A stretch of DNA of 64,000 nt from Candidatus Aldehydirespirator catecholifindens (lineage in GTDB: Bacteria; Actinomycetota; Acidimicrobiia; Acidimicrobiales; Aldehydirespiratoraceae), in the NCBI GenBank assembly GCA_028283245.1, contig JAPYNU010000073.1:383-64382 (forward strand). The letters run 5' to 3'. Below, in pieces: positions 41,358-58,357 of this stretch; the stretch's first letter is position 1, and the number at the start of each line of letters is the position of its first letter. The notes under the pieces were generated by a model. That model saw only the letters and a list, made by a program, of their open reading frames with translations, was not told the origin of the DNA and ran no database searches. The translations under genes and the position numbers were made by a program.

Positions 41358-42257
41358 TTAGTCGTCGCCGAGACGGAAATGGGGAGTTTCACGGGGCTCG
41401 CGGGTGGAAGCCTCAATGGCATCCTCTTCGTCCAGCAACTTCTCAAACTCGGGATCAGCCTCACTGACAAGCGGTGCCGTCTCTTCATCCAGGTTTTCAT
41501 CAGAGCCATCCCGGCGCCTCCCCGCAGCAGATGAGACGATCTTGCGGGGTTTGGAACCGGGGCCTGACGTTTCTCCGGCAGCCATGGCGGCCTCTTTCGA
41601 GGCTTTATCTTCGGAGAGGGTCTTGTAGGGCAGAATGTCGCCCTTGTAGAGCCAAACTTTCACACCGATCCGGCCGTAAGTGGTGCGGGCCTCGCGGAAG
41701 CCGTAGTCAACATCGGCGCGCAGCGTGTGAAGTGGCACTCTCCCCTCGCGATACCACTCGGTACGAGCCATTTCTGAGCCTCCCAGGCGACCCGAGCACT
41801 GCACCCTGATCCCCAACGCACCAGCTCTTTGGGCGTTCTGCACTGCTCGCTTCATGGCCCGTCGGAAGGCGACCCGGCCTGCGAGCTGGTCAGCTACACC
41901 TTGAGCTATCAGCGCAGCGTCAAGTTCGGGTTGCTTGATTTCTTGGATGTTGAGCTGCACGCGAGGGTTACCGCTGATATCAGTCAGCCCGGCGCGCAAC
42001 CTATCGGCTTCGGCACCCCGGCGGCCGATCACAATGCCTGGACGCGCCGTATGCACATCAACCCGCAAACGGTCACGGGTGCGCTCCACCTCAACACGGC
42101 TTATTGCAGCGTGGGGCAACTCGGTCATCAAAAAATCGCGGATCTTCCAATCTTCGATGACGTTGTTCGCGTAGTCCTTGCGGTCAGCAAACCAGCGGCT
42201 CTTCCATTCGGTGGTGACACCCAAACGGAACCCGTAGGGGTTGACTTTCTGACCCAT
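41358..42257 (-). CDS. rpsC: 30S ribosomal protein S3 with a long charged C-terminal extension
   Basis: [24 protein letters not shown].... 299 aa, and the last ~80 aa are non-core. Confidence 0.95.
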
Positions 42258-42979
42258 CAGACGCTCCCGTCAGCTTTCTTGGACTCTTCACCCGGCTCGG
42301 CGCTGGGTTCTTCGCTCGCACTCTCGTCGGCATCTGCGGTGTCGAACTCCTCAGACTCGACAGTTTCAGCAACAGACTCAACAGCAGGCTCTGCAACACT
42401 GTCATCAGCAACAGACTCAACAGCAGGCTCTGCAACACTGTCATCAGCAACAGACTCAACAGCAGGCTGCTCACCAGTCTGTGCTGAGTCTTCATCGGAC
42501 TGCTGTGCTTGTTGGGCTTGAGCTGCGGCACGCGACTGCGCTACTCGACGCTGGCGCGCCTCGGCGCTGCTGGTGCTGCGCTGAGACTGCACAGCTCTCA
42601 GCCGCTCAAGAGTTTCGGGATCGTAAAGGCTCACGATTACTGTGATGTGGCAGGTTCGCTTGCGGATCCGCGTGGCCCGTCCCCGAGCTCTCGGCCGCCA
42701 ACGCTTTAGTGTCGGGCCTTCATCGGCATAGCACGCCGACACATACAGATCATCAATGTCAAGGCCGTCGTTGTGCTCGGCGTTGGACAGCGCTGACTGC
42801 AACACCTTGTGAATCGGTTGAGCCACATCGCGCTCAGAGAAGGCCAAGATTTCCTGAGCATTCGCACAGCTTTGACCCCGTATCTGATCAAGAACTGCGC
42901 GGGCCTTGTATGCCGAGCATCGCACGTAAGAAGCCCGTGCCCGTGTGCCAGGACGTTCGTTGGTCTTTATGCCGACCAT
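42257..42979 (-). CDS. rplV: 50S ribosomal protein L22 with a ~110-aa acidic, repeat-containing C-terminal extension
   Basis: L22 core [22 protein letters not shown]...ITVIV. The tail contains [33 protein letters not shown]. 240 aa in total. Confidence 0.93.
42367..42468. repeat. ~2.6 x 39-nt tandem repeat inside the rplV 3' extension
   Basis: The unit cagcaacagactcaacagcaggctctgcaacactgtcat occurs at 42367-42405 and 42406-42444, with a partial third copy to 42468. Confidence 0.9.
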
Positions 42980-43261: not shown

Positions 43262-44098
43262 TTACCTCCGTGTGCCGCGCCGGCGCCGGCGACGAACGAT
43301 CAGCTTGTCGGATTCTTTGCGGCGGGCTCGGGTTCGACCCTCGGGCTTGCCCCAAGGCGAAACTGGATGTCGTCCTCCAGAGGACTTGCCCTCGCCACCT
43401 CCCAGTGGGTGGTCTACCGGATTCATGGCCACACCACGCGTCTGGGGGCGGACACCCTTCCAGCGGTTGCGCCCAGCTTTGCCGATCTTGGTGAGTTCAT
43501 GCTCGGAGTTGCCGACTTCGCCGACAGTAGCCCGGCAATCAATCGGTACCCGGCGCATTTCACTGCTCGGCAGGCGCAGAGTGGCGAACTTGCCTTCCTT
43601 GGCGACGAGTTGCACACTGGCCCCAGCACTACGACCCAAACTGCCCCCAGCACCAGGCTTCAACTCGACGCTATGCACGACCGTGCCCACCGGCACATGT
43701 CGCAGAGCCATGGCGTTGCCTGGGCGGACCTCTGCCTGGGGTCCCGACATGAGTCGATCACCAACCTCCAAGCCTTTCGGGGCCAAGATGTAACGCTTCT
43801 CGCCGTCGTGATAGTGCAATAGAGCGATGCGGCAAGTGCGGTTGGGGTCGTACTCAATAGTGGCGACCGTGGCCATGACATTGTCTTTGTTGCGGATGAA
43901 GTCGATCTTGCGGTAGCGCTGCTTGTGACCGCCGCCACGGTGGCGTGAAGTCATGCGTCCGTGGTTGTTGCGCCCGCCGGTGCTGGACTGCTTCACAAGC
44001 AGGCTGCGTTCGGGGTAGGAACGGGTGACCTCCGAGAAGTCTGAAGCAGTCTGGAAGCGGCGTCCAGGGCTGGAAGGCTTGCGTTTGCGAATCGCCAT
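43262..44098 (-). CDS. rplB: 50S ribosomal protein L2
   Basis: 278 aa. [17 protein letters not shown]... and [18 protein letters not shown]. Confidence 0.96.
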
Positions 44099-44391
44099 TA
44101 TTGAGCCTCAAAAAGGTCAATCGTGTCACCGGCAGCCAGAGTGACCAAGGCACGTTTGGTGTCGGGACGCTTGCCCCAAGTGTTGTTGCGACGGTTGTGG
44201 CGACGCTTGCCTTTGCGACGCAAGGTGTTGACCTTTATTACTTCCACATCAAAAAGCGTTTCGACCGCGGCGCGTATCTCTGGCTTGGTGGCCTGAGGTG
44301 CTACCACGAAGGTGTAGACATTGTCACCGAGCAGCGCGTAGCTTTTCTCAGACACCACGGGACGCAGGATCACATCACGATGATCATGCAT
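44098..44391 (-). CDS. rplW: 50S ribosomal protein L23
   Basis: [25 protein letters not shown]. Confidence 0.95.
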
Positions 44392-45127
44392 CGCCTAGAT
44401 CCTGTTCATCTGCTACCTCTGCAGCAACTTCTTCTTCGACTGCTGTATCTGTGGCATCGGACGTATCTGCGGTATCGGGAGTGTCAGCATCGGGCGGCTC
44501 TGAGTCGGCAGCCTCAGAAACTCCCGTGGGCAAAGTCTCAGAGGTGAACACCACCATGTCGCTTCTAACAACGTCATAGGTGTTCAACTCGCGATAATTC
44601 AGGCAATGCACCACAGCAAGATTGCGGAAGCTTTTGTAGGCGTTAGAGTCGCCCTCGCCGAGCACTACCAGCACCTTTCCTTCAGCGCCTATGGCATCAA
44701 GGGCTTTGACAGCAGCGCTGGTGCTGGGCTCATCGAAACGCCAGCGGTCTACCACTATCAAGCGCTCGGAGCGGGCCCGGTCGGAGAGCGCAGAGGCGAG
44801 GGCGAGGCGTTTCATCTTCTTGGGGGTGCGCTGGATGTAGTTGCGAGGCTTTGGTCCATGTGCTGCTCCGCCACCACGCCATTGCGGTGAGCGGATGGAG
44901 CCGTGACGGGCTCTGCCGGTGCCTTTCTGGCGCCACGGCTTTGAGCCGCCACCTGCTACCTCGGCGCGACTTTTGGTGCTGTGTGTGCCAGCCCGACGCG
45001 CTGCCAGTTGTGCAGTCACGACCTGATGCATCACACCAATGTTGGGTTCCACACCGAAAATCGCGTCGTCAAGATCAACCTCACCGACCTTTTTGCCCGC
45101 AGTAGACACCACCTTCAGCGAAACCAT
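44384..45127 (-). CDS. rplD: 50S ribosomal protein L4 with an acidic C-terminal tail
   Basis: [40 protein letters not shown]. Tail: [38 protein letters not shown]. Confidence 0.95.
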
Positions 45128-45130
45128 TGC

Positions 45131-45769
45131 TCAGCGCGCCTTCACTGCGTTGCGCACCACTACAGTGGCACCTTTAGGGCCTGGCACAGCACCCTTCACC
45201 AGCAGCATCTCGGCTTGGGCATCTGCGGAGACCACTTCCAAGTTGAGCGTAGTTACTCGACCACCGCCTGCTCGTCCCGGCAGTTTCTTACCTTTAAACA
45301 CTCTTGAAGGGGTCGCGCACTGGCCGACCGCTCCAGGCTTGCGATGCACTTTGTGAGCACCGTGCCCAGCGGGCTGACCTTTGAAACCGTGACGTTTCAT
45401 TACGCCACTGAAACCTTTGCCTTTCGACACCGCTGTCACATCAATTTTCTCGCCAGAGTCGAGTACGTCCACACCAATTTCTTGACCGACGGCATAGTCG
45501 CTGACATCCTCAAGTCGCAGTTCCAGCAGAGCTTTGCCGGGGGTTACGCCAGCGCGCTGAAAATGGCCAGCTTCGGGCTGAGGCAGCCGGGTGGGGTCAA
45601 CCATCCCGTAAGTAACTTGTATGGCGCTGTAGCCGTCGTTTTCGTTGGTCTTTATTTGCACGACACGACAAGGCAGAACACGCAGCACAGTAACCCCTAC
45701 GACCTGGTTATTTTCGTCCCACACCTGAGTCATACCGACCTTGGTGCCGACGATCGCCTTTGTGGCCAT
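45131..45769 (-). CDS. rplC: 50S ribosomal protein L3
   Basis: ATG 45769 gives MATKAIVGTKVGMTQVWDENNQVV... (212 aa). The track ORF adds 35 non-conserved upstream codons. Confidence 0.94.
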   Translation of the reverse strand: MATKAIVGTKVGMTQVWDENNQVVGVTVLRVLPCRVVQIKTNENDGYSAIQVTYGMVDPTRLPQPEAGHFQRAGVTPGKALLELRLEDVSDYAVGQEIGVDVLDSGEKIDVTAVSKGKGFSGVMKRHGFKGQPAGHGAHKVHRKPGAVGQCATPSRVFKGKKLPGRAGGGRVTTLNLEVVSADAQAEMLLVKGAVPGPKGATVVVRNAVKAR

Positions 45770-46193
45770 GGGTGGTCCTTGCTTCACGCGAACGCTCCGC
45801 TCGGGCTGACCCGGCGGAGCGGTAACTGGGTTGTGCCACACGGTTCCCTCCGATGCGAGGGCCTGTGCGGACATCGATTCGTGATCGCCTCAGAGGTCCC
45901 TGAAGAATTCCGAGGCGAAGCGGGATTATAACGCCTGCCGCTTCTGCCACCAACCCGCACCAATGCAGCACTCAAGCTTCTCAGTGCCTTGCGGAAAGCC
46001 TACGCAACGCGTGGCTGGACTGCTAGCGTAAATTCGCTTCAACCTCGCCCTCGAAAGTTCTACATGAGCAAGATCATCCCAGTGCCCGTCAGGCCAGCAG
46101 AAAAAGTCAGCGACATCGCCCAAGACCGCTGGCACCGACGAGACCGAGCAGAACAGCCGGTGATGGGGACCAGCGAAGCGACAGGCGGCACCA

Positions 46194-47291
46194 GTGCCTG
46201 ACGTGCCGCCGGTGCTGACGCCTTCGGGCACCGTGCTGCTCGAAGCCGCGGTCATGCTCGTCGTTTTTTTGGGCGCTCTTTTCGTGGGTTCGATGCTGGT
46301 GCCGGGACGCCGCATCACAGGGCCTGACCTCGGCAACGGAGAAACGATCACCTACAAGCTCAACGGCCTCGCGCTGTTGCTTCTGATCAGCGGTGCGCTC
46401 GGCATCGCCCAAGCACTCAACGTTTTCTCGATGTCTTCGCTGTACGAGCACTTTTTTGCACTGTTGATAGTCGCCAATATTTTCGCCGTGTCGTTCTCTG
46501 TGTGGTTGTGTCGACGGGGGGCGCGCAAGTGCGCCGAGAAGCCAGGATTTTTGCAGTCCTGTTTCGTGACCTCGGAACGCAATCCCTCCCTGGCGGGCGT
46601 GGACCTTAAGGTGTTCAGCTACCGCCCGTCGCTCATCGGACTGGCACTGCTGAACACCTCGTTCGCGGTGACGCAATACGAAACCTACGACAAGTTGACC
46701 TTGGCGATGGTTCTCTACCAGATCTTTACTTGGATCTATTTGATCAACTACTTCCAGTTTGAAGATGGCATAGTCCACACTTGGGATGTCATCGAAGAGC
46801 GCTTCGGATGGATGCTGGTTTGGGGCGATTACGTGCTGGTGCCGTTCTTCTACTGCATCGCTGGCTGGTGGCTGGTCGATGCCGACGCTGCAGAACTCAA
46901 CCCCTTCGCCGCCGCTGCCATCGTGCTGCTTTACGTTTTCGGTTTCTGGATGTTTCGCGGTGCCAACTACCAGAAGCACCGCTTCAAGCGCGATCCTTCC
47001 GTCACCATTTGGGGACGACCAGTCGAAACGCTCGACGGGCGACTGCTCGTATCGGGGTTCTGGGGAATTGGCCGACATCTCAACTACACAGGCGAAATCT
47101 GCGTCTACATCGCCTTCACGCTCACCGCTGGCTTCACGTCGTTCGTGCCGTTCTTGCTGCCAGCCTGGCTCGCAGGTCTGCTCTGGAACCGTTCCCGCCG
47201 CGACGAGCGGCGCTGCAGCGCCAAATACGGCGAACTGTGGGTGCGCTATAAGCAACGCGTGCCCTATTCGATGCTGCCTTTCGTCTACTGA
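46194..47291 (+). CDS. ERG4/ERG24-family sterol reductase-like polytopic membrane protein (candidate Delta14-sterol reductase)
   Basis: 365 aa, multi-TM. C-terminal family signature LLVSGFWGIGRHLNYTGEICVY...LLWNRSRRDERRCSAKYGELWVRYKQRVPYSMLPFVY. GTG start. The 439-aa antisense ORF is R/H-rich shadow. Confidence 0.8.
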   Translation: MPDVPPVLTPSGTVLLEAAVMLVVFLGALFVGSMLVPGRRITGPDLGNGETITYKLNGLALLLLISGALGIAQALNVFSMSSLYEHFFALLIVANIFAVSFSVWLCRRGARKCAEKPGFLQSCFVTSERNPSLAGVDLKVFSYRPSLIGLALLNTSFAVTQYETYDKLTLAMVLYQIFTWIYLINYFQFEDGIVHTWDVIEERFGWMLVWGDYVLVPFFYCIAGWWLVDADAAELNPFAAAAIVLLYVFGFWMFRGANYQKHRFKRDPSVTIWGRPVETLDGRLLVSGFWGIGRHLNYTGEICVYIAFTLTAGFTSFVPFLLPAWLAGLLWNRSRRDERRCSAKYGELWVRYKQRVPYSMLPFVY

Positions 47292-47399
47292 AGTCCATGA
47301 CGCAACAACTCCATGAAGCGGCGACGGTGAGACGAACGAACGCATGACAAGACGAACCGACGTATGACTAGACGAACGGATAAATGAGGGGTCAAATAG

Positions 47400-48788
47400 A
47401 TGACAGAAGCAACAGTGGCAAACCATAACGGCAGCTCAGCCGCCTCGATCCCCGAACTGTCTGGGGGCAGGCCGCTGATCGGACATCTGCGGGAATTCTT
47501 GAAAGACCCGGTGGGAATGCTCGACCGCTGCTGGCGCGACCACGGCGACCTAGTGCGTTTCCGGCTGGGGACCCGCAAGTTCGTGCTATTCACCGGGCCG
47601 GAAGCCCACGACTGCTATTTCAGGGCGCCTGAGGAGCAGCTTGATGCCAGGGCCGGGTATCAGTTCACGGTTCCCATCTTCGGACGCGGCGTGGCCTACG
47701 ACGTGGAACCCGAGATCATGGCGGAGCAGCTGGGGTTCCTCTATCCGGCTCTGCGTGATGCCTCCATGCGCAGATACGCCCGCATCATGTACGAAGAGAC
47801 AAGCGCGTTCGCCGACACGCTCGGTGAGGATGGGACCATTGATCTGCCGCTCCACATGAACGAGCTCACCGTGAAAATAGCTAGCCGCTGCCTGCTCGGG
47901 CAGGAAGTGCGGGATCAAGTGGATTCGGGATTCGCCGAGGCCTACCACGACTTGGAGGGGGGCATCAACCTCCTCGGCTTCTTCGCTCCCAAGCTGCCTA
48001 TCCCGGCGCACGTCCGGCGCGACAGAGCGCGCCGCAAGATATCGAAGATCCTGTTGGAGGTCATGAGCGAAAGGCGGCGCTGTGGCACGGCCACTGACGA
48101 TTTCATGCAGACGCTCATGGAGGCGCGCTACAACGACGGTCGAACCTTGGACGATGAAGAGGCAACCGGGATACTGGTGACAACCCTTTTCGCGGGCCAG
48201 CACACCAGCGCCGTGCTGGCGACCTGGATCGGCGTTGAGATGTTCCGCGACCACGACTGCGTGACACGAGTTCGCAACGAAATGCAGGAGGTCTACTCCG
48301 AAGATGGTGCCTTGAGCCTCGCGGGACTCAACAAGCAGTCCGCTCTGGGGCGCGTAGTGCGCGAATGCGAGAGGCTGCACCCGCCGCTGATAATACTGAT
48401 CCGCAAAGTGATCGAGCCTTTGCAGTATGCGGGCCACACCGTGCCGTCGGGCACTATGGCGGCTGTGTGTTCGGCGTCTTCGCATCGTTTGCCCCACCTG
48501 TTCTCTGACCCGCATCGCTTCGACCCTGAGCGGTTCGCTGACCCGCGCAACGAGGGCGATCAGCACAAATACGCTCTGATCGGGTTTGGTGGGGGCAAAC
48601 ACCGGTGCATGGGCGAGAAATTCGCCTTGCTGCAACTCAAGGCGATCTGGACGGTGTTGCTTGACCGCTTCGATTTTGAGCTCGACACGGAGTTCCCGGC
48701 CCCCAACTACGGCAGTTGGGTGACTGGCCCCAAGCTACCGTGCCGGGTTCGTTATCGCCGCCGCTCACAAGCAAACACGATCAGCTAA
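47400..48788 (+). CDS. cyp51: Cytochrome P450, CYP51-like (sterol 14-alpha-demethylase family)
   Basis: 462 aa. B'/BC-loop CYP51 signature YQFTVPIFGRGVAYDV, I-helix FAGQHTS, LHPPLIILIR, heme loop FGGGKHRCMGEKFA, C-terminus CRVRYRRR. As I recall the M. tuberculosis CYP51 sequence, this is collinear with it along the whole length. Confidence 0.85.
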   Translation: MTEATVANHNGSSAASIPELSGGRPLIGHLREFLKDPVGMLDRCWRDHGDLVRFRLGTRKFVLFTGPEAHDCYFRAPEEQLDARAGYQFTVPIFGRGVAYDVEPEIMAEQLGFLYPALRDASMRRYARIMYEETSAFADTLGEDGTIDLPLHMNELTVKIASRCLLGQEVRDQVDSGFAEAYHDLEGGINLLGFFAPKLPIPAHVRRDRARRKISKILLEVMSERRRCGTATDDFMQTLMEARYNDGRTLDDEEATGILVTTLFAGQHTSAVLATWIGVEMFRDHDCVTRVRNEMQEVYSEDGALSLAGLNKQSALGRVVRECERLHPPLIILIRKVIEPLQYAGHTVPSGTMAAVCSASSHRLPHLFSDPHRFDPERFADPRNEGDQHKYALIGFGGGKHRCMGEKFALLQLKAIWTVLLDRFDFELDTEFPAPNYGSWVTGPKLPCRVRYRRRSQANTIS

Positions 48789-48857
48789 GAGGCCGAACGA
48801 ACCGCAACAACACTGTCAGCGGAGATGTACTGTCAGCGGAGATGTAATGTCTAGCCA

Positions 48858-50114
48858 GTGCGCGACACACACGATCCAGGCGAGTCTGTCAGATCGGCAG
48901 GCGAAGCAGGCGCAGCCTCTACTGTGCCGTCAGCCGAGGCTGCATCCCCCGAAGAGACTGCTTCATCGCTAACTGCTGACGCATCGCTAGCTACTGAGAA
49001 AATGCCGGGCTGGGTCAAGCGGGCCATCGTCTGGTTCTGGCTCGGAGGGCTGATCGCCTTCTACTTCGTTGATGTGGTAAGTTCGCTGCGGAGCTTGCTC
49101 ACCGTGCTCGTGGTGTCGCTGTTTGCGGCTTTCGCGTTCGAGCCTGCGGTCAACTGGATGGCCGGGCGCGGTATTCGTCGAGGCTTGGCAACAGCCGGAG
49201 TGTTCGTGCTTGTGGCTCTGCTAGCGGCAGGTTTCTCAGCCGTGATCGGAACAGCCCTCGCTACAGAGGTTGATGTCTTGATCGACAACGCCCCCGGCTA
49301 TATCGATGACATTGAGGAATGGGTTAACGACACTTTCAACTCGGATTTTGACTTCGACAGCCTTCGTGATGAGTTCCTTGATGAGGGTGGCGTAGAGAAT
49401 CTCGCTAGCCGCTTCGCCGACGATGTAGTCAACGTGGGTGCCACAGTGGTGAGTTTGCTCTTCCAGCTCTTCACGGTCGCTTTGTTCACCTTTTATCTGC
49501 TGGCCGAGGGCCCCAAGCTGCGCCGCATGATCGGGTCACGTCTAAGCGCTCGCCGCGCCGCCATAGTTACTGAGATCTGGGATTTGTCGATGAACAAGAC
49601 CGGCGGCTACATGTATTCACGCACGATCTTGGCGGTCATCTCGGCTTTTGTGCATTGGGCGGCTTTCGCGCTGTTGGGGGTGCCTTCGCCGGTGGCTTTG
49701 GCCATGTGGGTGGGTGTCGTGTCGCAGTTCATTCCCGCGATTGGCGCTTACGTCGCTGGGGTTTTGCCGGTGCTGGTTGCGCTATTGCATGAGCCAAGAA
49801 CTGGACTGTGGACGCTGGTAGTGATCGTTGCTTACCAGCAACTCGAGAACTACATCTTCTCGCCTCGGATCACGGCGCGCACCATGGAGATACATGTTGC
49901 TCTGGCTTTCGGCTCGGTGATAGCAGGCACCGCGCTGATGGGGATTGTCGGTGCCTTCCTGGCGTTGCCGGTGGCGGCCGTAGCTCAAGCCTTCATCTCC
50001 AGCTGGTTGGATCAGCGCACCGGCCCTGTCGGGCTTGCCGATAACCAATCAGCTGATGACCCATCATCTGAAGCGACACCGCCCGAGCAGACCAGTCCAA
50101 CTGAGTCAAACTGA
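48858..50114 (+). CDS. AI-2E family transporter (PerM/UPF0118)
   Basis: 418 aa, multi-TM. ...LFTFYLLAEGPKLRR... and LLGVPSPVALAMWVGVVSQFIPAIGAYVAG. ATG 49002 (MPGWVKRAI) is an alternative start. Confidence 0.75.
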   Translation: MRDTHDPGESVRSAGEAGAASTVPSAEAASPEETASSLTADASLATEKMPGWVKRAIVWFWLGGLIAFYFVDVVSSLRSLLTVLVVSLFAAFAFEPAVNWMAGRGIRRGLATAGVFVLVALLAAGFSAVIGTALATEVDVLIDNAPGYIDDIEEWVNDTFNSDFDFDSLRDEFLDEGGVENLASRFADDVVNVGATVVSLLFQLFTVALFTFYLLAEGPKLRRMIGSRLSARRAAIVTEIWDLSMNKTGGYMYSRTILAVISAFVHWAAFALLGVPSPVALAMWVGVVSQFIPAIGAYVAGVLPVLVALLHEPRTGLWTLVVIVAYQQLENYIFSPRITARTMEIHVALAFGSVIAGTALMGIVGAFLALPVAAVAQAFISSWLDQRTGPVGLADNQSADDPSSEATPPEQTSPTESN

Positions 50115-50149
50115 GTTAAACCGAGTCAGACAGGCTGCAAACGCAGTAT

Positions 50150-51508
50150 TCACAGATCCCATAGGCAAGACATTGGCAGAGCTGCAATGCGATCTTTAAG
50201 CCTGTGCGGTTGCTGGCCTGTGTAAAGCACAATGCCGATTTCGAAGCGGTCGCCGATTTGGTCACGCAGCCAGGCCAGCGACTTAGCATCAGTAGGCCTT
50301 ACCGTAGCCGAGGCCTTTACCTCAACTGCGATCAGGCGCCCATCGGGGTGCTCTATCAGTAGATCAATCTCACGCCCAAGCGAGTCTCGGTAGTGACAAA
50401 AACGCAACTCTGGGGCCACCGCTTGCGCCTGCCTATGCAGTTCAGAGAACACAAACGATTCGTGCAACTGTCCTCGCTCATGCGTTTCTGGATCGCTGAG
50501 CGTCTCGGCTGCCACACCGAGCATCGCTGCGGCCAGACCCGAATCCGTGACGTGAACTTTCGGCCTGCGTTTAGCGCGTGTTGGAGCGGACGAAGCCCAA
50601 CCATCCAAACGACACACAAGATGAGTCATCTCTAGATACGAGAGATAGTCGGCGGTCGTTTCAATGCTGCCAAACCCCATGTCGCGGTGAAGGTCCTGCA
50701 TGACGAGTTCTCCCGCGGTGCGAGCCGACACTGCACGCAACAGTCGAGGCAGTTCGCTCGAACGCCGTGCTCCGGTCAACTCAACAATGTCACGAGTCAC
50801 CAACGCGTGGACATACGACTGGAACCAGAGTTGCCGGTCGGTGTCCGACAGGCTAAGCACCTCTGGATAGCCACCCCGGCACACTCGCTCGGCATACTGA
50901 AAACGGTCAAGGGGAGCATACGAAGCCCCTAGGAGTTGCTCAAGACATCCCCCAGTGTCGCTAAGTAACTGCGCCAGCAACCCGTCGGATTGACCACATA
51001 TCTCTACCTCCGACAACGGTGCCAACTCAAAGAACACGGCTCGACCAGCAAGAGACTCTGACAGTACCGGAACATGAAGGAAGCCAGCCGAGCCGGTCAG
51101 CAAGAACTGGCCGGGTGACGGATCAGCATCAACGGCCAACTTGATTGCCCTTACTAGATCGTCGCCACCGCGCTGCACCTCGTCGATGACGGTCGGGCGG
51201 TTGCGTCCGCTTATGAAACCCAGCGGATCTTCGCGGGCGAGCTCCACCAGAACTGCCTCGTCAAGGCTCAAAAATGACTGACCAAGAGTCACAGGCTTTC
51301 CAGCAAGAGTCAAAGGCTTTCCAGCAAGAGTCAACGGCTTTCCAGCAAGAGTCAACGGCTTTCCGCTAGCGGCAATCTGGCGCGCCAACGTCGACTTGCC
51401 CGACTGACGGGGGCCCGAAAGCACCACAATCCGAAACGTCTCAAGCGCTCTTCGCAGAACCGGCTCAATCTGGCGCGGAACAATCTTCTGTATCGTCTCT
51501 GGTGGCAC
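50150..51508 (-). CDS. AAA-family ATPase with a C-terminal DUF4143 (restriction-endonuclease-like) domain, carrying an internal GKPLTLA repeat
   Basis: Walker A LSGPRQSGKSTLARQIA, Walker B-like VIDEVQ, LTGSAGF...SESLAGR. C-terminal PD-(D/E)xK-like REIDLLIEHPDGRLIAVEVKAS. Between Walker A and B lies the insert SGKPLTLAGKPLTLAGKPLTLAGKPVTLG. Confidence 0.8.
   Translation of the reverse strand: MPPETIQKIVPRQIEPVLRRALETFRIVVLSGPRQSGKSTLARQIAASGKPLTLAGKPLTLAGKPLTLAGKPVTLGQSFLSLDEAVLVELAREDPLGFISGRNRPTVIDEVQRGGDDLVRAIKLAVDADPSPGQFLLTGSAGFLHVPVLSESLAGRAVFFELAPLSEVEICGQSDGLLAQLLSDTGGCLEQLLGASYAPLDRFQYAERVCRGGYPEVLSLSDTDRQLWFQSYVHALVTRDIVELTGARRSSELPRLLRAVSARTAGELVMQDLHRDMGFGSIETTADYLSYLEMTHLVCRLDGWASSAPTRAKRRPKVHVTDSGLAAAMLGVAAETLSDPETHERGQLHESFVFSELHRQAQAVAPELRFCHYRDSLGREIDLLIEHPDGRLIAVEVKASATVRPTDAKSLAWLRDQIGDRFEIGIVLYTGQQPHRLKDRIAALPMSCLWDL
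51283..51366. repeat. 4 x 21-nt in-frame tandem repeat inside the ATPase gene
   Basis: Units: caagagtcacaggctttccag / caagagtcaaaggctttccag / caagagtcaacggctttccag / caagagtcaacggctttccgc. Confidence 0.92.
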
Positions 51509-51517
51509 AAATCAATG

Positions 51518-51563
51518 CTACCAGTAGTTTTATCAACTGGCTACCAGTAGTTTTATCAACTGG
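51518..51563. repeat. 2 x 23-nt perfect tandem duplication in the AT-rich region upstream of the ATPase gene
   Basis: ctaccagtagttttatcaactgg occurs twice, 10-55 nt upstream of the ATPase start (51508), followed by ctagttataattttgtacattactg. Candidate operator or promoter duplication. Confidence 0.85.
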
Positions 51564-51717
51564 CTAGTTATAATTTTGTACATTACTGATCGGTTGAACA
51601 GGCGGGCTGAATGCTTGCATGTCGACCCCACCGAGCCAGCACGATGCTTGAACTACATATTCACCAACGTGCCTGCCGGGATTTATATGAACCACGACAG
51701 CATGTGGCGGAGGGGTA

Positions 51718-52041
51718 TTAGGTCTGCTGGACTTTCAGTTCAATGTCGACACCCGCAGGCACTTCAAGGCGCTGCAGGGTGTCGACAGTCTTTTTGTTGG
51801 GTTCCAAGATGTCCAGCAGACGCTTGTGAATGTGCATCTCAAAGTGCTCGCGAGAATCTTTATCTTTGAAGGGTGAGCGCACCACCGTGAAACGATGCTT
51901 CTCGGTGGGCAGCGGCACAGGGCCTCGAAACTCGGCCTGGGTGCGCTTCACGGTCTCAACGATTTTCTTGGTGGACTGATCAAGGATCTCATGGTCGTAG
52001 GCCTTGAGCCTGATCCGAACCCTCTGCTTCGCTGCCGCCAC
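51718..52041 (-). CDS. rpsJ: 30S ribosomal protein S10
   Basis: [34 protein letters not shown]...[23 protein letters not shown]. Confidence 0.96.
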
Positions 52042-52081
52042 AAGAACCTCTTCGCTGTCTCGGTGCCCGAATGATCAGGAT

Positions 52082-53269
52082 CTACTTGATGATCTTGATG
52101 ACCGAGCCCGCACCGACAGTGCGGCCTCCTTCACGGATGGCGAAGCGCAGCCCCTCATCCATGGCAATCGGGTTGATCAGATCAACATGCATGACAGTGT
52201 TGTCGCCAGGCATGCACATCTCGGTGCCTTCAGGCAGGTTGATGGTGCCGGTCACATCAGTCGTCCGGAAATAGAACTGTGGCCGATAATTCGAGAAGAA
52301 CGGCTTGTGGCGACCACCCTCCTCTTTGCTCAGCACATACACCTGCGCTTCAAACTCGGTGTGAGGAGTGATGCTCTTGGGTGCAGCCAGAACCTGCCCG
52401 CGCTGAACTTCGTCTTTGTCAACACCACGCAACAACGCGCCGATGTTGTCGCCCGCTTCGCCACGGTCAAGGATCTTGCGGAACATCTCCACGCCGGTGC
52501 AAGTGGTCTCTTGAGTGTTGCGAAGGCCGACAATCTCTACTTTGTTGCCGGTCTCAACCACGCCCTGCTCAACACGTCCAGTGACGACAGTGCCTCGCCC
52601 AGTAATTGAGAACACGTCCTCAATGGGCATCAGGAACGGCTTGTCGATATCACGCTCAGGGGTGGGCACATAGTCATCCACCGCAGCCATCAGTTCCATC
52701 ACCTTTCCGGCTGCGGATTCGTCGCCTTCCAGCGCTTTCAGAGCCGACACTCCAATGACCGGTGTGTCATCGCCAGGGAAGTCGTATTCGTCAAGAAGTT
52801 CACGCACTTCAAGCTCGACCAGTTCGAGGATCTCCTCGTCGTCAACCATGTCCACCTTGTTGAGGGCCACAACAATGCGGGGAACCCCCACTTGGCGTGC
52901 CAACAGCACATGCTCACGAGTCTGAGGCATGGGACCATCCGCAGCCGACACCACCAAAATGGCACCGTCCACTTGGGCGGCACCAGTGATCATGTTCTTG
53001 ATGTAGTCGGCGTGACCCGGCATATCGACATGCGCGTAGTGACGGTTGTCGGTCTCGTATTCGACATGGGCGACATTGATGGTGATGCCGCGCTCACGCT
53101 CTTCGGGGGCGTTGTCGATCTTGTCGAACTCGGTGAATGCGGTGCCTTCCACGCGGTCTGACAGCACCTTGGTGATGGCAGCCGTAAGTGTGGTTTTGCC
53201 GTGGTCAATGTGACCCATAGTCCCCACGTTTACGTGAGGCTTGTTCCGCTCGAACTGCTCCTTGGCCAT
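52082..53269 (-). CDS. tuf: Elongation factor Tu
   Basis: ATG 53269 gives [32 protein letters not shown]... (395 aa). The track ORF has a 61-codon upstream extension. Confidence 0.97.
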
Positions 53270-53312
53270 GGATTTTCCCTCTTGTGGTCTTCGTTGGTTT
53301 AAGGACTTCGGA

Positions 53313-55400
53313 TCACTCGCCGCGTACGCGTGCGACGATCTCCTTTTGCACGTTCGCAGGGGTGGGCTGGTACGAATCGAACTGCATCGTGTACGTGGCC
53401 CGCCCTTGCGTGCGTGATCGCAGGTCGGTACTGTATCCGAACATCTCCGCAAGCGGCACCTGCGCGCTCACCACTTGATTATTGCCGCGTCGTTCGGTGC
53501 CACGCATCTGACCGCGGCGAGCGTTGAGATCACCAACGACATCACCGAGGTAGTCGTCAGGGGTAACGATCTCCACCGCCATCACTGGCTCCAGCAAGAT
53601 CGGCTTGGCTTTGGGTGCCACTTCACGGAACCAGGCACTTCCGGCGATCTTGAAGGCCATCTCTGAAGAGTCCACGTCGTGAGTGCGTCCGTCGGTGAGA
53701 GTGACCTTGACATCAACGGTAGGGAAGCCTGCCAGCACACCGTTGCTCATGGCATCGCGGATGCCTTCATCCACCGGCTTGATGAACTCACGCGGGATAG
53801 CTCCAGCGCGAATCGTGCTCTCAAAAACATACTGTCCGCCGGGGTTGGGTTCGATCGTGGCTGTGACCACAGCGAACTGCCCCGAACCGCCGGTCTGCTT
53901 CTTATGCACGAAAGTGTGACCGGCGACGGTATTGGCGAGAGTCTCTCGGTATGCCACCTGAGGCTTGCCGACATTGGCTTGCACGTTGAACTCACGCAAC
54001 ATGCGGTCCACGAGCACCTCTAGATGCAACTCGCCCATACCGGCGATGATGGTCTGGGCGGTGTCGGCATCGGTGCGCACCCTGAACGTTGGGTCTTCCT
54101 CTGACAGCGCTGTGAGCGCCTTAGACATCTTGTCTTGGTCGGCTTTTGAGCGCGGCTCAACAGCCACATCAATCACTGGTTCGGGAAAATGCAAGTCTTC
54201 CAAAGCCACCTGATGCGCGGGATCACAAAGCGTGTCGCCGGTGCGACAGTCTTTGAGCCCTATTGCGGCAGCAATGTCGCCTGAGGCCACTGAAGTCAGA
54301 TCAACACGGTCGTTAGCGTGCATCTCTAGGATGCGTCCGATGCGTTCGGTGCGGCCGGTGCGAGTGTTCAGAACTTGTGCACCTTTTTCCAAAGTGCCGC
54401 TGTAGACACGGAAGTAGGTGAGCTTGCCGACATGAGGGTCGGTAGCGATTTTGAAAGCCAGCGCAGTTAGGGGCTCAGAGTCGTCGGCTGAGCGAGAAAC
54501 TGCGACACCGCTGCGAGGTTCGCTGCCGGTCACATCGGGCACGTCACTGGGCGACGGCAGATAGTCAATGATTGCGTCAAGCAGCGCCTGCACTCCCTTG
54601 TTCTTAAACGACGAACCGTTGAGCACAGGCACCAAGCCGCCCGTGAGAGTTCCGGCACGCACAGCTTCAGCAACCTCCGCTGAGCTGATCTCTTCGTCCT
54701 CAAGAAACTTCTCAAGCAGGCTCTCGTCATAGTCGGACAAGGTCTCAAGAAGGTCATGACGGTAGAGCTCGGCCTCTTCGAGCATGTCGTCAGGGACATC
54801 AGTCTCGGTCCAGGTAACCCCAAGGTCTTCACCTGACCAGATACGCGCACGCATTCTTACCAAGTCGATAATGCCCCGGTAGTCGGATTCGACACCGATC
54901 GGAAGCTGCAGCACTGCGATCTTGGTGGTCAGCCGTTCACGGATCGAGTCCAGCACGAAATGGAAGTCGGCACCGGTGCGGTCCATCTTGTTGACGAAAC
55001 ACAGCCGCGGAACGCGGTAACGATCGGCTTGACGCCACACCGTCTCACTCTGGGGTTCCACGCCAGCAACGCCATCGAACACGGCGACCGCACCATCGAG
55101 CACACGCAGCGAACGCTCAACTTCCACCGTGAAGTCAACATGGCCAGGAGTGTCAATGATGTTGATGCGATGATCACGCCAAATGCAGTGCGTGGCAGCC
55201 GAAGTGATGGTGATGCCGCGCTCTTGCTCTTGGGCCATCCAGTCCATAGTGGCTGCACCGTCATGGACCTCACCGATCTTGTAGTTGCGGCCCGTGTAAT
55301 ACAGGATCCGCTCGGTGGTGGTGGTTTTACCTGCATCAATGTGAGCCATGATGCCGATGTTGCGGGTTTTGGACAGGGGATATCGTTCGTTCGCGGGCAT
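53313..55400 (-). CDS. fusA: Elongation factor G
   Basis: ATG 55400 gives [37 protein letters not shown]... (695 aa). Confidence 0.97.
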
Positions 55401-55590
55401 TGCGGTTCTTCCTGGGATTTTGGTAGGGGCGTTGCGGTTGGGATCCGGCTCACGCATCCCGCTCGCTTAGCCTGCGAGCCGCGTGAGGCGAGGCGGCGGA
55501 TTCTGAAAGTCGGAGAGGGTTGGTCAGTCGGGCGGTGTCACGAAGAGCGGCATCGTCATGGCAGCCGAACTAGCCACCAACAAACCGCAA

Positions 55591-55608
55591 CCGGGCAGCA
55601 ATGCCCGG
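55591..55608 (-). terminator. Short GC hairpin after the PIN-like gene, upstream of fusA
   Basis: ccgggca gcaa tgcccgg (7-bp stem, 4-nt loop), followed on the minus strand by ttgcggtttgttgg. Function is inferred only. Confidence 0.35.
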
Positions 55609-55656
55609 CCACAGATTATTCTACGCTACCGGCTCGCCAACTATGTGCAATACCCC

Positions 55657-55962
55657 TTAAGCAGATAAGCGGTCTAGTTGTTGGGGCTCGACATGACTAA
55701 CGCTGAGATGCTGTGTCCGACGCATCAGATTGGCGACAAGCGCGGGCCAGGGCAGGAATGGTCGGATCTGACGATGCTCAATCCAGTCAGCCTCTATTAC
55801 AGAGGTAAGTTCCTTGTGTAGGTGAAGGCCTTGCTTGAGTTCATCGACTACCGATTTAGGAACGACAGCCGTGTGGCCTGCTAAGATTGTCTTGAGTGCG
55901 TCCAAGCGCTGGGCACGGGCAAAGTGGCTGAGCGGGCCTGTATCGAATACAAAAACTGGCAT
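55657..55962 (-). CDS. PIN-like (COG2405/DUF3368-type) nuclease domain protein, apparently C-terminally truncated
   Basis: MPVFVFDTGPLSHFARAQRLDALKTILAGHTAVVPKSVVDELKQG...ADWIEH matches the N-terminal half of this PIN family as I recall it. The expected GEA...DD(x)AR second half is absent in all three frames. 101 aa. Confidence 0.45.
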   Translation of the reverse strand: MPVFVFDTGPLSHFARAQRLDALKTILAGHTAVVPKSVVDELKQGLHLHKELTSVIEADWIEHRQIRPFLPWPALVANLMRRTQHLSVSHVEPQQLDRLSA

Positions 55963-55971
55963 CTTGAGCAG

Positions 55972-57075
55972 TCACAACACAAAAGACCAAGCAGCTTCGA
56001 TAGGGAGAGTGGGGAGTTCGGGTAGGTCGTCCTCACTCCAAGTACCCAACAGGAGATCTAGCGCTCGAGCTGCAGTGATCTCCTCACCGGTGTAGGCAGC
56101 GAGAACCGCCTTGATGTAGCGATTCGGCAACTCTGGCGGAACAAGATCAGTAGGAACGACTAGTGCGTGCTCCACGATGTCGGCACGGCGAGTGCGGGTT
56201 ACGCGCACCTCATTGGCCTCTGCAGAAGACATAAGACCCAAATCGGTCAGCCGCTGTGCAAGCGTAGACATGTCCACCCGGAAGTGGCTCGCAGTCAAGA
56301 CAGCCTTCGTGCGGACAGGCTCGTCGCGCCGCCAACAGGACTGCAAAGCCGCCGCAGGTAGTAGAAGTGCCCGAGCGAAACGGTCGATCAGAGACTCATT
56401 GCGGGTGGCATCGAAATCGGCCACGTTCCAGTCGGTTGCGTATTCGTCAGCGAATACGTAGTGACCGAGTTCATGCGCGAGAGTCAGGCGGCGTCGACCT
56501 AAGGCACGGCTGCCGTTGACCACAGCTACCCCACCGCTGTCGAGCAGTACTGTGGCACCGTCTGCACCATGCTCGCCCAACTCAAGAGAGAAGACCAGCA
56601 GACCGATGTCAGCGGCTCGTTCGGTCAAGCGCAGAGCTGGCTCGGACCCTTCATAGCCGAGCAGCGTCCGTGCCTGCTTTGCAGCTTCTTCGGCCTCCTC
56701 AGAGGTATCGGGAACATGCAGTTCGGGAGTGGCAGGGAGATCAAAACCCGTGTCGATGCTCTGAAGGAACATGGTCTCGCGGGCGACACGCTCCGTCATC
56801 CGGTCGATTTGAGGGCTAGGCTCACCAGGTGCGGCGGCGCTGCGGCGCGACACCACCGCATGCGGAGCATCATCGAAGAGCCACTCGATGCGCATCTCTA
56901 GGACATCCGCCAATCGGGCAAGTTCCATAGCCTCAACCCGCCGTGCGCCCGTCTCAATCTTGGCCAGCGCACTGCGATGCAGTCCCGACCGCGCTGCACA
57001 CTCTTGCTGTGTGAGGCCCGCATCACGCCGAGCGGATGCGATCCTATTCCCCAACTTGCGGGCACTAACCGTCAT
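55972..57075 (-). CDS. XRE-family HTH fused to an ImmA/IrrE (COG2856) zinc metallopeptidase domain
   Basis: 367 aa. N-terminal HTH LGNRIASARRDAGLTQQECAARSGLHRSALAKIETG and the HExxH motif in LTLAHELGHYVFADEY. Its stop lies 9 nt before the PIN-like start. Confidence 0.85.
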   Translation of the reverse strand: MTVSARKLGNRIASARRDAGLTQQECAARSGLHRSALAKIETGARRVEAMELARLADVLEMRIEWLFDDAPHAVVSRRSAAAPGEPSPQIDRMTERVARETMFLQSIDTGFDLPATPELHVPDTSEEAEEAAKQARTLLGYEGSEPALRLTERAADIGLLVFSLELGEHGADGATVLLDSGGVAVVNGSRALGRRRLTLAHELGHYVFADEYATDWNVADFDATRNESLIDRFARALLLPAAALQSCWRRDEPVRTKAVLTASHFRVDMSTLAQRLTDLGLMSSAEANEVRVTRTRRADIVEHALVVPTDLVPPELPNRYIKAVLAAYTGEEITAARALDLLLGTWSEDDLPELPTLPIEAAWSFVL

Positions 57076-57179
57076 GTGTTCGATTATAGAACAATCCCAC
57101 GGCGGGCGTTCAAGCTTCGCTCTCAGGTCCGAATGGGTGATGGTGGGACAGTGAATGAAGTATGTCCCTGGGACGTGTG

Positions 57180-57667
57180 TTACCAGCGATAGTGAGCGAA
57201 GGCCTTGTTGGAATCAGCCATCTTCTGCAGGTCTTCTCGGCGCTTCACTGAAGCACCGAGGCCGTTGCCAGCGTCAAGCAACTCGCTGGCAAGCCGCTCG
57301 GCCATAGTGCGTTCACGGCGGCCTCTGGCGTAAGTAACGATCCAGCGGCAGCGGATCGCCAGCGTGGTGGCTCTGCGGGGCTTCACCTCAACAGGCACCT
57401 GATAAGTGGCACCACCAACACGACGGCTACGCACCTCCAGTTGCGGACGCACATTCTCAACGGCTCGTTTGAGAGTAGATACCGGCTCGGCACCAGTCTT
57501 TGTCTCAACAATTTCCATGGCATCATAACGATGCGCTCAGCGCAGGTGCGCTTGCCACGCTGCAAGACTTTGTTGATCACTTGAGTGACCAGCAGCGATT
57601 GATAGATCGGATCGGATTGAAGTTCGCGGCGCGCTGCTGACGGCGAGATCGGTGTTGATGCACGCAA
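57180..57667 (-). pseudogene. rpsG: 30S ribosomal protein S7 gene carrying three lesions (probable pseudogene, or an assembly error plus variation)
   Basis: The N-terminal part, ..[38 protein letters not shown], is in one frame (track ORF 57383..57667). The C-terminal part, (A)[45 protein letters not shown]...NKAFAHYRW, is in another (57180..57518). One extra T at 57527-57528 (gtt atg atg cc -> gtt tat gat gcc) would restore ...IVYDAMEIV.... The conserved MPRK N-terminus is missing, and only a TTG at 57667 is available, directly after a TGA. A perfect 6-nt tandem duplication, cagcgg x2 at 57343-57354, inserts two residues into the conserved A-x-R-W-(I/L)-V motif, giving AIRCRWIV. Confidence 0.8.
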
Positions 57668-57671
57668 TCAG

Positions 57672-58235
57672 ATGCACGCAGGACACACGCAGAGACACAA
57701 TTCAAACACCACTGACAGCGAGCCTGGTGTTGCAGGTGGGGGTTGGGTGGCTGACATCACGCTGGTCGCGCACGTTGGCGACGCCACCGGTGAACTAATC
57801 ACTGAACTCTCAGACGGATCACGGCTACCTGCAGCGGTGCTCGAAGAACTGTCATGCAATGCGCGATGGACAGGATTGGTGTATGACCGTTGCGGAGACG
57901 CGATCTGGCGCAGCAGATCAAGACGCACAGTCACCAACAGCCAATGGCAAACACTTCTCACCGACTACGGAGGCTGCTTCCACTGCGGGACACCACCAGC
58001 CATATGTCAAGCCCATCACATCATCCCCTATTCACAAGGCGGAGAAACCAGCGTCAACAACAACCCGCACCAGAATCAGAACCGCCACCCCACCGCACGC
58101 GATCACCGCCCAGAACCGAGAAGAGCAGAGCAAACCGGACCAGAACCAAAGCCAGAAACCCAGCCCGGTCACACTGTGGTGAAGACTGCACTCAAGCCGG
58201 AGTGTCAATCAGGCCACTTCTGTAATCAACGGTGA
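57672..58235 (+). pseudogene. 5'-truncated, 3'-degenerate HNH endonuclease remnant (actinobacterial DUF222/13E12-type)
   Basis: ...LSDGSRLPAAVLEELSCNARWTGLVYDRCGDAIWRSRSRRTVTNSQWQTLLTDYGGCFHCGTPPAICQAHHIIPYSQGGETSVNN is the C-terminal HNH core. The usual ~250-aa N-terminal domain is absent. The sequence after SVNN degenerates into P/Q/N/R-rich text in all frames. Confidence 0.65.
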
Positions 58236-58297
58236 AGACCAGTCACGCTCTAGTGAACACTGCCCTCCCCAATAAGCAGATAACTAGAAATGGGCTC

Positions 58298-58357
58298 GGC
58301 ATAACCGACATTGGCATAACCGACATTGGCATAACCGACATTGGCATAACCGACATT
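58298..58357. repeat. 4 perfect tandem copies of a 15-mer (ggcataaccgacatt), non-coding
   Basis: Read directly. Units at 58298, 58313, 58328 and 58343. Lies between the HNH remnant and the 3' end of hipA. Confidence 0.95.

Follow-up and report, generated by a model that had tools for sequence, protein, structure and literature searches.

In cyanobacteria, plastids, and archaea, the S10 gene (rps10) follows tufA or the EF-1alpha gene, and the L3 gene cluster is found separately. Here, we describe a break at exactly this position, between rpsJ (S10) and rplC (L3), in a 64,000-nucleotide (nt) stretch of DNA from Candidatus Aldehydirespirator catecholifindens (GCA_028283245.1, contig JAPYNU010000073.1, positions 383 to 64,382), referred to below as the window. 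As in the str-type clusters, rpsJ of the window is close to tuf and the rplC-rplD-rplW-rplB block stands apart. Unlike them, however, the window belongs to the Actinomycetota, where all 67 other sampled loci keep rpsJ 7 to 90 nt from rplC. Furthermore, its two blocks remain neighbors in the same orientation, the spacer between them carries a lineage-specific leader and variable cargo, and a contiguous rpsL-rpsG-fusA-tuf arrangement is not seen in the window, while relatives do have a contiguous rpsL-rpsG-fusA. For the leader, the closest described systems are those of ribosomal protein operons. The S10 operon leader of Escherichia coli acts through L4-mediated attenuation and translational repression, and an L4 leader has been predicted upstream of rplC in Archaeoglobi (Fu et al. 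2013, PMC3616713; Eckert and Weinberg 2020, PMC7247131), the only group in which a survey of such leaders records one of the L4 type in association with rplC (PMC7247131). We consider it probable that the DNA between rpsJ and rplC in the window is this lineage's spacer between two operons, produced by a shift of the operon boundary and repeatedly filled with layered cargo, and is not an interrupted operon. If so, what appears to be the break of a highly conserved gene adjacency would be a boundary shift that runs through a whole lineage.

The gap between rpsJ and rplC spans 5,948 nt (45770 to 51717), so rpsJ does not lie directly before rplC at a distance of tens of nt. On the minus strand, tuf (52082 to 53269, from the list of open reading frames [ORFs]; 395 amino acids [aa] with GTP_EFTU domains in the gene calls of identical contigs) ends 40 nt upstream of the start of rpsJ (51718 to 52041; Pfam Ribosomal_S10, 2.2e-35). 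Beyond the gap and on the same strand, rplC (45131 to 45769; Pfam Ribosomal_L3) is the first gene of the rplC-rplD-rplW-rplB-rpsS... operon, with the rplC-rplD-rplW-rplB order evident both from the ORFs and from Pfam-annotated gene calls of identical contigs. Inside the gap, a co-directional run on the plus strand begins with an ERG4/ERG24 sterol reductase gene (46194 to 47291; Pfam ERG4_ERG24, 6.8e-69; ERG24 hereafter) and continues with a CYP51 gene (47400 to 48788; Pfam p450, 6.7e-54) and an AI-2E family transporter gene (48858 to 50114; Pfam AI-2E_transport, 3.4e-62). A gene for an AAA_14/DUF4143 ATPase (50150 to 51508; Pfam AAA_14, 4.8e-16, and DUF4143, 2.2e-35) lies on the minus strand. 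An earlier note on this DNA had described a separation of about 5.9 kb with four nonribosomal genes, three of which are encoded on the other strand from the ribosomal genes, and an AT-rich, repeat-bearing segment near rpsJ. The ORF list and Pfam agree with this layout, and in the AT-rich segment, the GC content falls to 0.51.

A metagenome-type assembly is the source of the window, and conserved ribosomal operons are prone to misjoins, so the junction could be an assembly or binning chimera. The odds of this are negligible. Both junctions recur on five contigs from independent data sets, different samples, and different assemblers (JGI 3300009883, JGI 3300009887, Logan SRR10406113, Logan SRR10406107, and NCBI GCA_028283225.1). 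Each of these contigs encodes the exact CYP51 protein of the window and keeps the gene order from rplC to rpsJ-tuf-fusA; strain differences among the five are confined to the copy number of a 21-bp repeat in the ATPase gene and to the region upstream of fusA. Both junctions are also present in related species (for two of these, the contig is longer than 2.4 Mb), and both junction spacers are conserved between species. The agreement of five independent assemblies with three related species thus indicates that the arrangement is not a chimera.

To place the gap in context, relatives were collected by a scan for L3, with one genome per species, followed by tblastn with the proteins of the window (loci of relatives are given L numbers). 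In leader-positive Acidimicrobiia, the spacer between tuf and rpsJ has a median of 11.5 nt and measures at most 74 nt in 25 of 30 loci, while the spacer between rpsJ and rplC has a minimum of 217 nt and a median of 655 nt, and 21 of 41 loci have more than 600 nt. Other Actinobacteria show the opposite: the spacer between tuf and rpsJ has a median of 2,045 nt, exceeds 100 nt in 41 of 42 loci, and reaches 9.4 kb, whereas that between rpsJ and rplC has a median of 11 nt across the 67 loci. Because of this reversal, the operon boundary appears to have moved by one gene. In leader-carrying Acidimicrobiia, rpsJ is probably the last gene of a fusA-tuf-rpsJ block and the L3 operon probably begins at rplC; correspondingly, the variable spacer between tuf and rpsJ of other Actinobacteria appears to be the counterpart of the spacer between rpsJ and rplC in Acidimicrobiia. 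The supposed island of the window would then sit in a spacer between operons, not within a working operon. Gene order annotation and synteny markers for Acidimicrobiia should therefore expect tuf-rpsJ followed by a boundary and rplC, and not tuf followed by a boundary and rpsJ-rplC.

The split is not peculiar to the window. The family Candidatus Aldehydirespiratoraceae was formerly called UBA11606 and includes a clade of sponge symbionts (PMC11706023); every member sampled (L006 to L014 and L016, with L3 67 to 89% identical) has rpsJ and rplC apart. In unsplit Acidimicrobiales, the spacer between rpsJ and rplC is 217 to 453 nt and carries the same conserved leader, usually together with a promoter-like site; among these are the more distant L015, L017, and L018, in which the spacer is already about 300 to 450 nt.

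These observations bear on the view that the whole 5.9 kb is one recent mobile island inserted into an intact rpsJ-rplC operon, as the earlier note had proposed. The presence of four nonribosomal genes, three on the opposite strand, fits this view, as do the raised GC content at third codon positions (GC3) and cross-phylum relatives of ERG24 and CYP51, the place of the ATPase in a candidate defense family, and an apparently recent insertion at the same site in L006 (see below). The spacer and leader of unsplit relatives, together with an rpsJ held tightly to tuf, however, contradict insertion into a working operon, and the rplC leader and promoter-like site would be older than the split. The gene histories do not coincide either: the AI-2E gene is found at the site across almost the whole family, with identities that follow L3, the ATPase is shared with L008, and the sterol pair is shared only with sister species, where the same four genes occur with identities parallel to those of ribosomal proteins. 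The absence of mobility features that had already been remarked upon was borne out by every search: the four gap genes contain no integrase domain (Pfam), a tRNA scan of the whole 64-kb window found none, and the only candidate flanking direct repeats are imperfect pairs of at most 20 nt at chance level. In composition, the gap (GC content of 0.56 to 0.62) equals the backbone, with only ERG24 and CYP51 raised in GC3. A horizontal origin is supported for part of the cargo, the sterol pair, with its cross-phylum relatives at approximately 74 to 77% identity. Likewise, relatives share the split, but the contents of their gaps vary highly between genomes. The combination that the earlier note had named as the mark of an old, fixed rearrangement, namely, an arrangement shared by relatives and a backbone-like composition, is largely what is found for the split itself. 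Taken over the entire region, the evidence already contradicts a single island, and we consider this view very unlikely.

A strongly conserved noncoding element emerged on alignment of the 330 nt upstream of rplC from 16 Acidimicrobiales genomes, both split and unsplit. In the window, it corresponds to a structured RNA leader of approximately 105 nt just upstream of rplC (45780 to 45884, minus strand), with a covariance-model score of 105.9 bits. The leader consists of a two-part covarying helix (P1), an unpaired, invariant GCAnAA, and an invariant hairpin (P2; GCUCCGC...GCGGAGC). The fold of a 156-nt leader has an energy of -71.3 kcal/mol, with a minimum free energy (MFE) z score of -3.75, and RNAalifold identified 8 covarying pairs in P1 across the 16 genomes. 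An outer closing helix of the window RNA (CACG...CGUG) was also considered and was rejected, as it is unsupported in distant members and was dropped by RNAalifold. At the 5' end of the rplC transcript, an MFE fold predicts a further hairpin (45885 to 45918, minus strand; CGCCUCgg...cuGAGGCG), whose stem is kept with altered bases in L006 to L008 (CGCCCCGG..CCGGGGCG).

The covariance model matches upstream of rplC only and has no match in the 67 other actinobacterial loci. A search of metagenome contigs with a pattern that fixed the bases of P2 and GCAnAA, followed by confirmation with the model, added 66 instances, for a total of 82. rplC begins 10 to 100 nt downstream of the leader in all genomic and 64 of 66 metagenomic instances; in L141 and L162, the contig ends before rplC could be reached. 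Over the full alignment of 82 instances, pairing holds in 96.3% of cells, and 11 pairs include 185 cells changed on both sides, compared with 51 ± 5.6 in shuffled alignments (0 of 500 reach the observed value) and at most 49 in slid controls. Rfam 15 had no match at E ≤ 1 within 44000 to 56500 (12.5 kb), and a search with the leader alone at E ≤ 10 returned only noise. We regard the element as a well-supported candidate for a ribosomal protein leader RNA that has not previously been catalogued. Like the leaders of the E. coli S10 operon and Archaeoglobi, it would form a structured 5' untranslated region directly before an operon encoding L3 and L4, in which the structure of one helix and the sequence of one element are conserved, a pattern expected of a protein-binding leader. 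It differs from them in that it has no Rfam match, lies before rplC and not before rpsJ, and occurs in Acidimicrobiia only. By analogy, it is most likely an autoregulatory site that binds a protein encoded by the operon, with L4 or L3 as the obvious candidates. To our knowledge, few ribosomal leaders are known in Actinomycetota, and this candidate offers a testable entry into the regulation of L3/L4 operons outside Gammaproteobacteria.

Alternatively, the conservation could reflect coding sequence (an N-terminal extension of L3, within a 247-aa ORF from 45874) or a protein-binding site at the DNA level. An in-frame ATG at 45874 does give a longer ORF, one gene caller lengthened L3 to 235 aa in L086, and the sequence invariance of P2 is what a DNA operator could show. 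Indels in the element, however, are not multiples of three, its loop varies from 2 to about 50 nt, and the pairing of P1 survives the 185 double changes. Moreover, L3 homology begins at the downstream ATG in every genome, preceded by a Shine-Dalgarno sequence, and most L3 gene calls are 212 aa. In the window, the start of rplC at 45769 is marked by AAGGA 8 nt upstream, and every L3 alignment begins with MATKAIVG, which rules out 45874 as the true start. Both the coding and the DNA site explanations are thus highly improbable, and we continue to treat the element as an RNA leader.

Upstream of the leader, a promoter-like site can be read from the sequence at 45925 to 45953 (minus strand), with TTGGTG (45953 to 45948) and TATAAT (45930 to 45925) separated by 17 nt. 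GTTGG...TAyAmT blocks align at this position in L086, L087, L006 to L008, and L013, and in 31 of 53 loci, unsplit ones among them, a TTGnnn-N16-19-TAnnnT pattern occurs within the 110 nt that precede the leader. The presence of a promoter-like site, a leader, and opposite-strand genes between rpsJ and rplC argues against cotranscription of the two genes. A promoter for rplC within 45770 to 46193, as had been predicted earlier, is consistent with this site; the suggestion that it would be newly needed after an insertion is not, as unsplit relatives already have the leader and usually the promoter-like site.

These elements suggest how the gap could have come to hold such varied genes. rpsJ would have become the 3'-terminal gene of fusA-tuf-rpsJ, and the large ribosomal operon would start at rplC under its own promoter-like site and leader. 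Sequence inserted after rpsJ but ahead of the rplC promoter and leader should then leave the expression of ribosomal proteins undisturbed. Insertions at this junction would be tolerated, so the site could be filled repeatedly and independently. It would thus be a natural permissive site beside essential, highly expressed genes, which informs where accessory and defense genes gather. In the window, three layers can be told apart.

The AI-2E transporter gene would be the oldest layer. Of the 11 family genomes sampled outside the clade of the window, 10 have it between rpsJ and rplC, and overall it was found in the gaps of L006 to L010, L012 to L014, L016, and L086 to L089, as well as of the metagenome loci L101, L116, L124, L132, L134, and L136; in L164, it is directly upstream of rplC, with rpsJ off the contig. 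The identity of AI-2E follows the L3 tree, at 85, 79, 67 to 72, and then 48 to 53%, and the gene is always divergent from rplC, within about 250 to 400 nt of it in 10 genomes. These data suggest that AI-2E is a long-term resident of the gap that was fixed early in Aldehydirespiratoraceae.

A second layer would be a defense-type slot on the rpsJ side, occupied in the window by the ATPase gene. The ATPase matches PADLOC PDC-S01 (PDLC04790; 2.4e-133, residues 71 to 451), which suggests a role in defense, although the PDC-S01 family itself has only candidate status, and an orthologue is common to L008 and L086 to L089. Just upstream of the gene, within the AT-rich segment, a 23-bp unit is perfectly repeated twice in tandem (GCTACCAGTAGTTTTATCAACTG on the plus strand; 51517 to 51562). 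Alignment showed that a double TAGC..GTAAAACTAC..GG unit is kept ahead of the ATPase orthologues of L086, L087, L088, and L008. Because of this conservation in four species, the repeat belongs to the ATPase gene, and we interpret it as an operator- or promoter-like element, not as the end of an island. Within the gene, 21-bp coding tandem repeats (51262 to 51364) encode AGKPLTL heptads near the N terminus, and the protein is 438, 445, or 452 aa long in different assemblies of the same species, which resembles a contingency-like length polymorphism.

In relatives, the extra DNA of the gap differs from genome to genome. The defense-type slot would be filled by a type I/II methyltransferase and a Dsr1-like protein in L006 and by DISARM DrmA/DrmB in L016; the gap of L009 contains DUF222-HNH and RDD, that of L007 a polysaccharide deacetylase, and that of L011 LigB and a Na/Pi-type protein. 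Unrelated cargo is also found in the gaps of other Acidimicrobiia, including an SDR protein, peptidase M6, an FtsJ-like methyltransferase, and an ATP-dependent DNA ligase. A 1,161-aa ORF of L016 was initially a candidate epoxidase-cyclase, as it has the same length as the fusion protein of L090 (see below), and was rejected because it is DISARM DrmA. In the closed L006 genome (OZ220709.1), the 6.97-kb segment with the methyltransferase and Dsr1-like genes is bounded by two perfect direct copies of a sequence of at least 300 bp that includes rpsJ (1 to 300 and 6973 to 7272), so that L006 has two copies of rpsJ. This looks like a recent insertion with target duplication and is compatible with recombination through an rpsJ-homologous segment; the window contains no such rpsJ repeat scar. 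L006 also has a 94-bp tandem array of about 6 copies (8072 to 8635), which adjoins the AI-2E gene. As in described defense islands and hotspots, a single slot thus holds differing defense-type genes (PDC-S01 in the window, L008, and L086 to L089; methyltransferase plus Dsr1-like in L006; DISARM in L016). Here, however, the flanks are ribosomal protein genes that normally belong to one operon, no integrase was found in the gap of the window (the gaps of relatives being partly annotated), and a target duplication is seen in L006 only.

The sterol pair, located between the AI-2E start and the rplC promoter, would be a third layer, gained horizontally as a unit and then inherited vertically. The assignment of CYP51 is well founded in homology. 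All of the top 56 PDB matches are CYP51s or sterol 14-demethylases (about 1.6e-104 to 1e-54), including those of Methylococcus (6mcw, 1.7e-104), Mycobacterium tuberculosis (1e9x, 1.2e-90), humans, and protozoa, and the best matches without a CYP51 name in the PDB list are at 4e-42 or weaker. CYP51 proteins are recognized by a B'-helix motif (YxxF/L..PxFGxxVxYD), GQHTS in helix I, and the heme-binding FGxGxHxCxG. All of these signatures are present in the translation, as YQFTVPIFGRGVAYD, AGQHTS, and FGGGKHRCMGEKFA, respectively; no ferredoxin is fused or adjacent to CYP51. The reductase aligns with the delta(14)-sterol reductase MaSR1 (4quv, 3.9e-65) over residues 24 to 365, through the C terminus, and the alignment covers LLxSGxWGxxRHxNYxGE and the C-terminal KYGxxW, so the enzyme is predicted to be of the delta-14-reductase type. 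The two enzymes would catalyze consecutive steps, 14-alpha-demethylation followed by delta-14 reduction, and the pairing of CYP51 with a reductase for the next step argues for genuine processing of 14-methyl sterols. M. tuberculosis Rv0764c is an orphan CYP51, a sterol 14-demethylase in a bacterium without a sterol pathway. The CYP51 of the window is likewise actinobacterial and without an adjacent cyclase, and the two are similar (1.2e-90). It differs in that it has a paired reductase and in that its closest relatives are genes of sponge- or marine-type clusters, not mycobacterial ones.

The distribution of the pair is narrow. Besides the species of the window, only two or three sister species share it, and it is absent from L006 to L008. 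In the sister species (L086 to L089), the order is rplC, ERG24, CYP51, Lactamase_B_3, AI-2E, ATPase, rpsJ. Identities to the sister species are 92 and 88% for ERG24, 91 and 94% for CYP51, 95 and 90% for L3, and 85 and 86% for L4. Because the values for the sterol genes parallel those for L3 and L4, the pair appears to have been inherited vertically since a common ancestor. The next homologues outside this clade, among them genes of Gammaproteobacteria, Thiotrichales, Nitrospira, and Rhodospirillaceae, are only approximately 74 to 77% identical, and GC3 is 0.75 to 0.77 in ERG24 and CYP51 compared with 0.56 to 0.70 in 22 other genes. In L090, both genes are approximately 74% identical to those of the window and are embedded in a full sterol cluster with squalene synthase, HMG-CoA synthase, 3-beta-hydroxysteroid dehydrogenase (3-beta-HSD), Rieske, ERG24, CYP51, a fused epoxidase-cyclase, and a sterol methyltransferase. 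ERG24-CYP51-LSS clusters have been reported in 115 of 537 metagenome-assembled genomes from sponges, in ten phyla and including Acidimicrobiia, with phylogenetic evidence for horizontal gene transfer and with low omega values (Kelly et al. 2022, PMC9531527). The window resembles these clusters in having ERG24 followed by CYP51 on one strand, with lengths of 365 and about 462 to 469 aa and approximately 74% identity, and differs from them in having no cyclase or epoxidase after CYP51; a transporter follows instead, or Lactamase_B_3 in the sister species. We infer that the pair was acquired in one piece from an ERG24-CYP51-cyclase cluster circulating in sponge-associated bacteria. A sponge origin of the organism itself is suggested by its family, the names of its relatives, and the scaffold label "ROBB21." We did not find a sterol pair inside a ribosomal gene region reported in the literature.

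Searches for the rest of the pathway consistently returned nothing. The gene that follows CYP51, 69 nt on, is AI-2E and not a cyclase. tblastn with the epoxidase-cyclase of L090 had no match in the window or in L086 to L089, and tblastn of the window and all loci found no squalene synthase, HMG-CoA synthase, 3-beta-HSD, Rieske, sterol methyltransferase, or cyclase remnants. A Pfam scan of 20 further window genes revealed no sterol pathway enzyme. Finally, the 2.82-Mb and 2.48-Mb contigs that carry sister-species ERG24 are missing from those of the best 120 cyclase homologues, whereas more than 20 other ERG24 contigs reappear there. The retention of a pair without a cyclase over several speciations bears on whether sponge bacteria make sterols or only modify them, a distinction that matters for the reading of sterol biomarkers. 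As a separate observation, the fused squalene-epoxidase/oxidosqualene-cyclase (approximately 1,130 to 1,160 aa; L090, 12513 to 15998) is widespread in metagenomes, with 797 proteins at E ≤ 1e-30, and is usually on the same contig as an ERG24 of the 365-aa type. The 3,765-position LSS alignment of Kelly et al. fits such an epoxidase-cyclase fusion.

Two small features adjoin the sterol genes. A small ORF of about 45 aa (46064 to 46201, plus strand; MSKIIPVPVRPAEK...) ends at the start of ERG24; L086 retains its first codons (MSKSIPA), and the gene calls of L087 include a 48-aa gene at this position. Its product is not a ferredoxin, since it has no cysteines. In the 69-nt spacer between CYP51 and AI-2E, the repeat search found a 17-bp unit perfectly repeated twice in tandem (ACTGTCAGCGGAGATGT; 48812 to 48845), which stands where the sister species have the Lactamase_B_3 gene and may be a scar of deletion or insertion or a regulatory site.

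The placement of these genes could itself be adaptive. A promoter for ERG24-CYP51-AI-2E that diverges from a strong, growth rate-controlled rplC promoter could couple sterol modification or export to ribosome synthesis, in which case the gap would work as a functional unit and not serve as a dumping ground. The constant divergent position of AI-2E near rplC is in line with this idea, as is the insertion of the pair precisely between the start of AI-2E and the promoter of rplC, in the orientation of AI-2E, and its retention in three or four species; the low omega values reported for these genes (Kelly et al., PMC9531527) also fit. The junction of other lineages, however, holds unrelated cargo (SDR, peptidase M6, FtsJ-like methyltransferase, DNA ligase, and DUF222-HNH with RDD), and the Lactamase_B_3 gene of the sister species, which is on the opposite strand between CYP51 and AI-2E, breaks an ERG24-CYP51-AI-2E operon. 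We therefore think an adaptive placement unlikely. Somewhat less doubtful, but still tentative, is an extension of the spacer model in which the leader is a new class-wide autoregulator that responds to L4 or L3 and made the L3 operon transcriptionally autonomous, this autonomy turned the junction into a safe harbor in which defense and metabolic genes are captured again and again, and the captured module without a cyclase in the window clade processes 14-methyl sterols that the cell does not make itself, such as those derived from a sponge host. If true, bacterial tailoring of eukaryotic sterols would be a symbiont trait.

Returning to the spacer between operons as the preferred explanation of the gap, several points weigh against it or its parts. 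A strict sigma-70 consensus scan of 45500 to 52400 returned no site, the candidate for rplC being missed because its -35 element matches at 3 of 6 positions. The fold of the rpsJ 3' region is not significant as a terminator (z = -1.18). Without a convincing terminator after rpsJ, read-through into the ATPase gene may occur; across 45500 to 52400, terminator-like sites are no more frequent than expected from shuffling. It is from sequence that we deduce the promoter, the start of transcription, and the independence of the two units. The invariance of P2 and GCAnAA among the 82 leaders is partly by construction, as the search pattern fixed those bases, although both are invariant too in the 16 genomes, which were found through the L3 protein alone. 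To call AI-2E ancestral to the family is only approximate, because L011, from the same broad group, is split and lacks it. Lastly, the genome-wide lack of a cyclase in the window clade, judged among the best 120 matches, is suggestive only.

The window also contains what appears to be a second, strain-variable hotspot, between rpsG (S7) and fusA. The rpsG remnant (57183 to 57652, minus strand) is frameshifted, with residues 2 to 43 encoded in 57652 to 57527 and residues 44 to 156 in 57527 to 57183, and has no Met-Pro-Arg start; it looks like a pseudogene. No rpsL was found anywhere in the 64-kb window. HTH/Peptidase_M78 and DUF3368 genes lie between the remnant and fusA, and an HNH-like ORF and a HipA toxin gene lie upstream of the remnant (region 55657 to 59792); in a different assembly of this species, the genes upstream of fusA are N6_N4_Mtase and ResIII instead. 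A 15-bp tandem repeat (approximately 58295 to 58354, plus strand), located between the HNH-like ORF and the HipA gene, encodes GITDI four times in one frame. Elsewhere in the window, three minus-strand ORFs of 746, 378, and 395 aa (9477 to 11717, 5860 to 6996, and 7109 to 8296, respectively) have no Pfam match. Two ribosomal proteins of the L3 operon are also unusual in length: L4 (rplD, 44384 to 45127) has a long acidic C-terminal tail, with lengths of 247, 265, 314, and 325 aa across sister species, and L22 (rplV, 42257 to 42979) is unusually long, at 227 to 284 aa.

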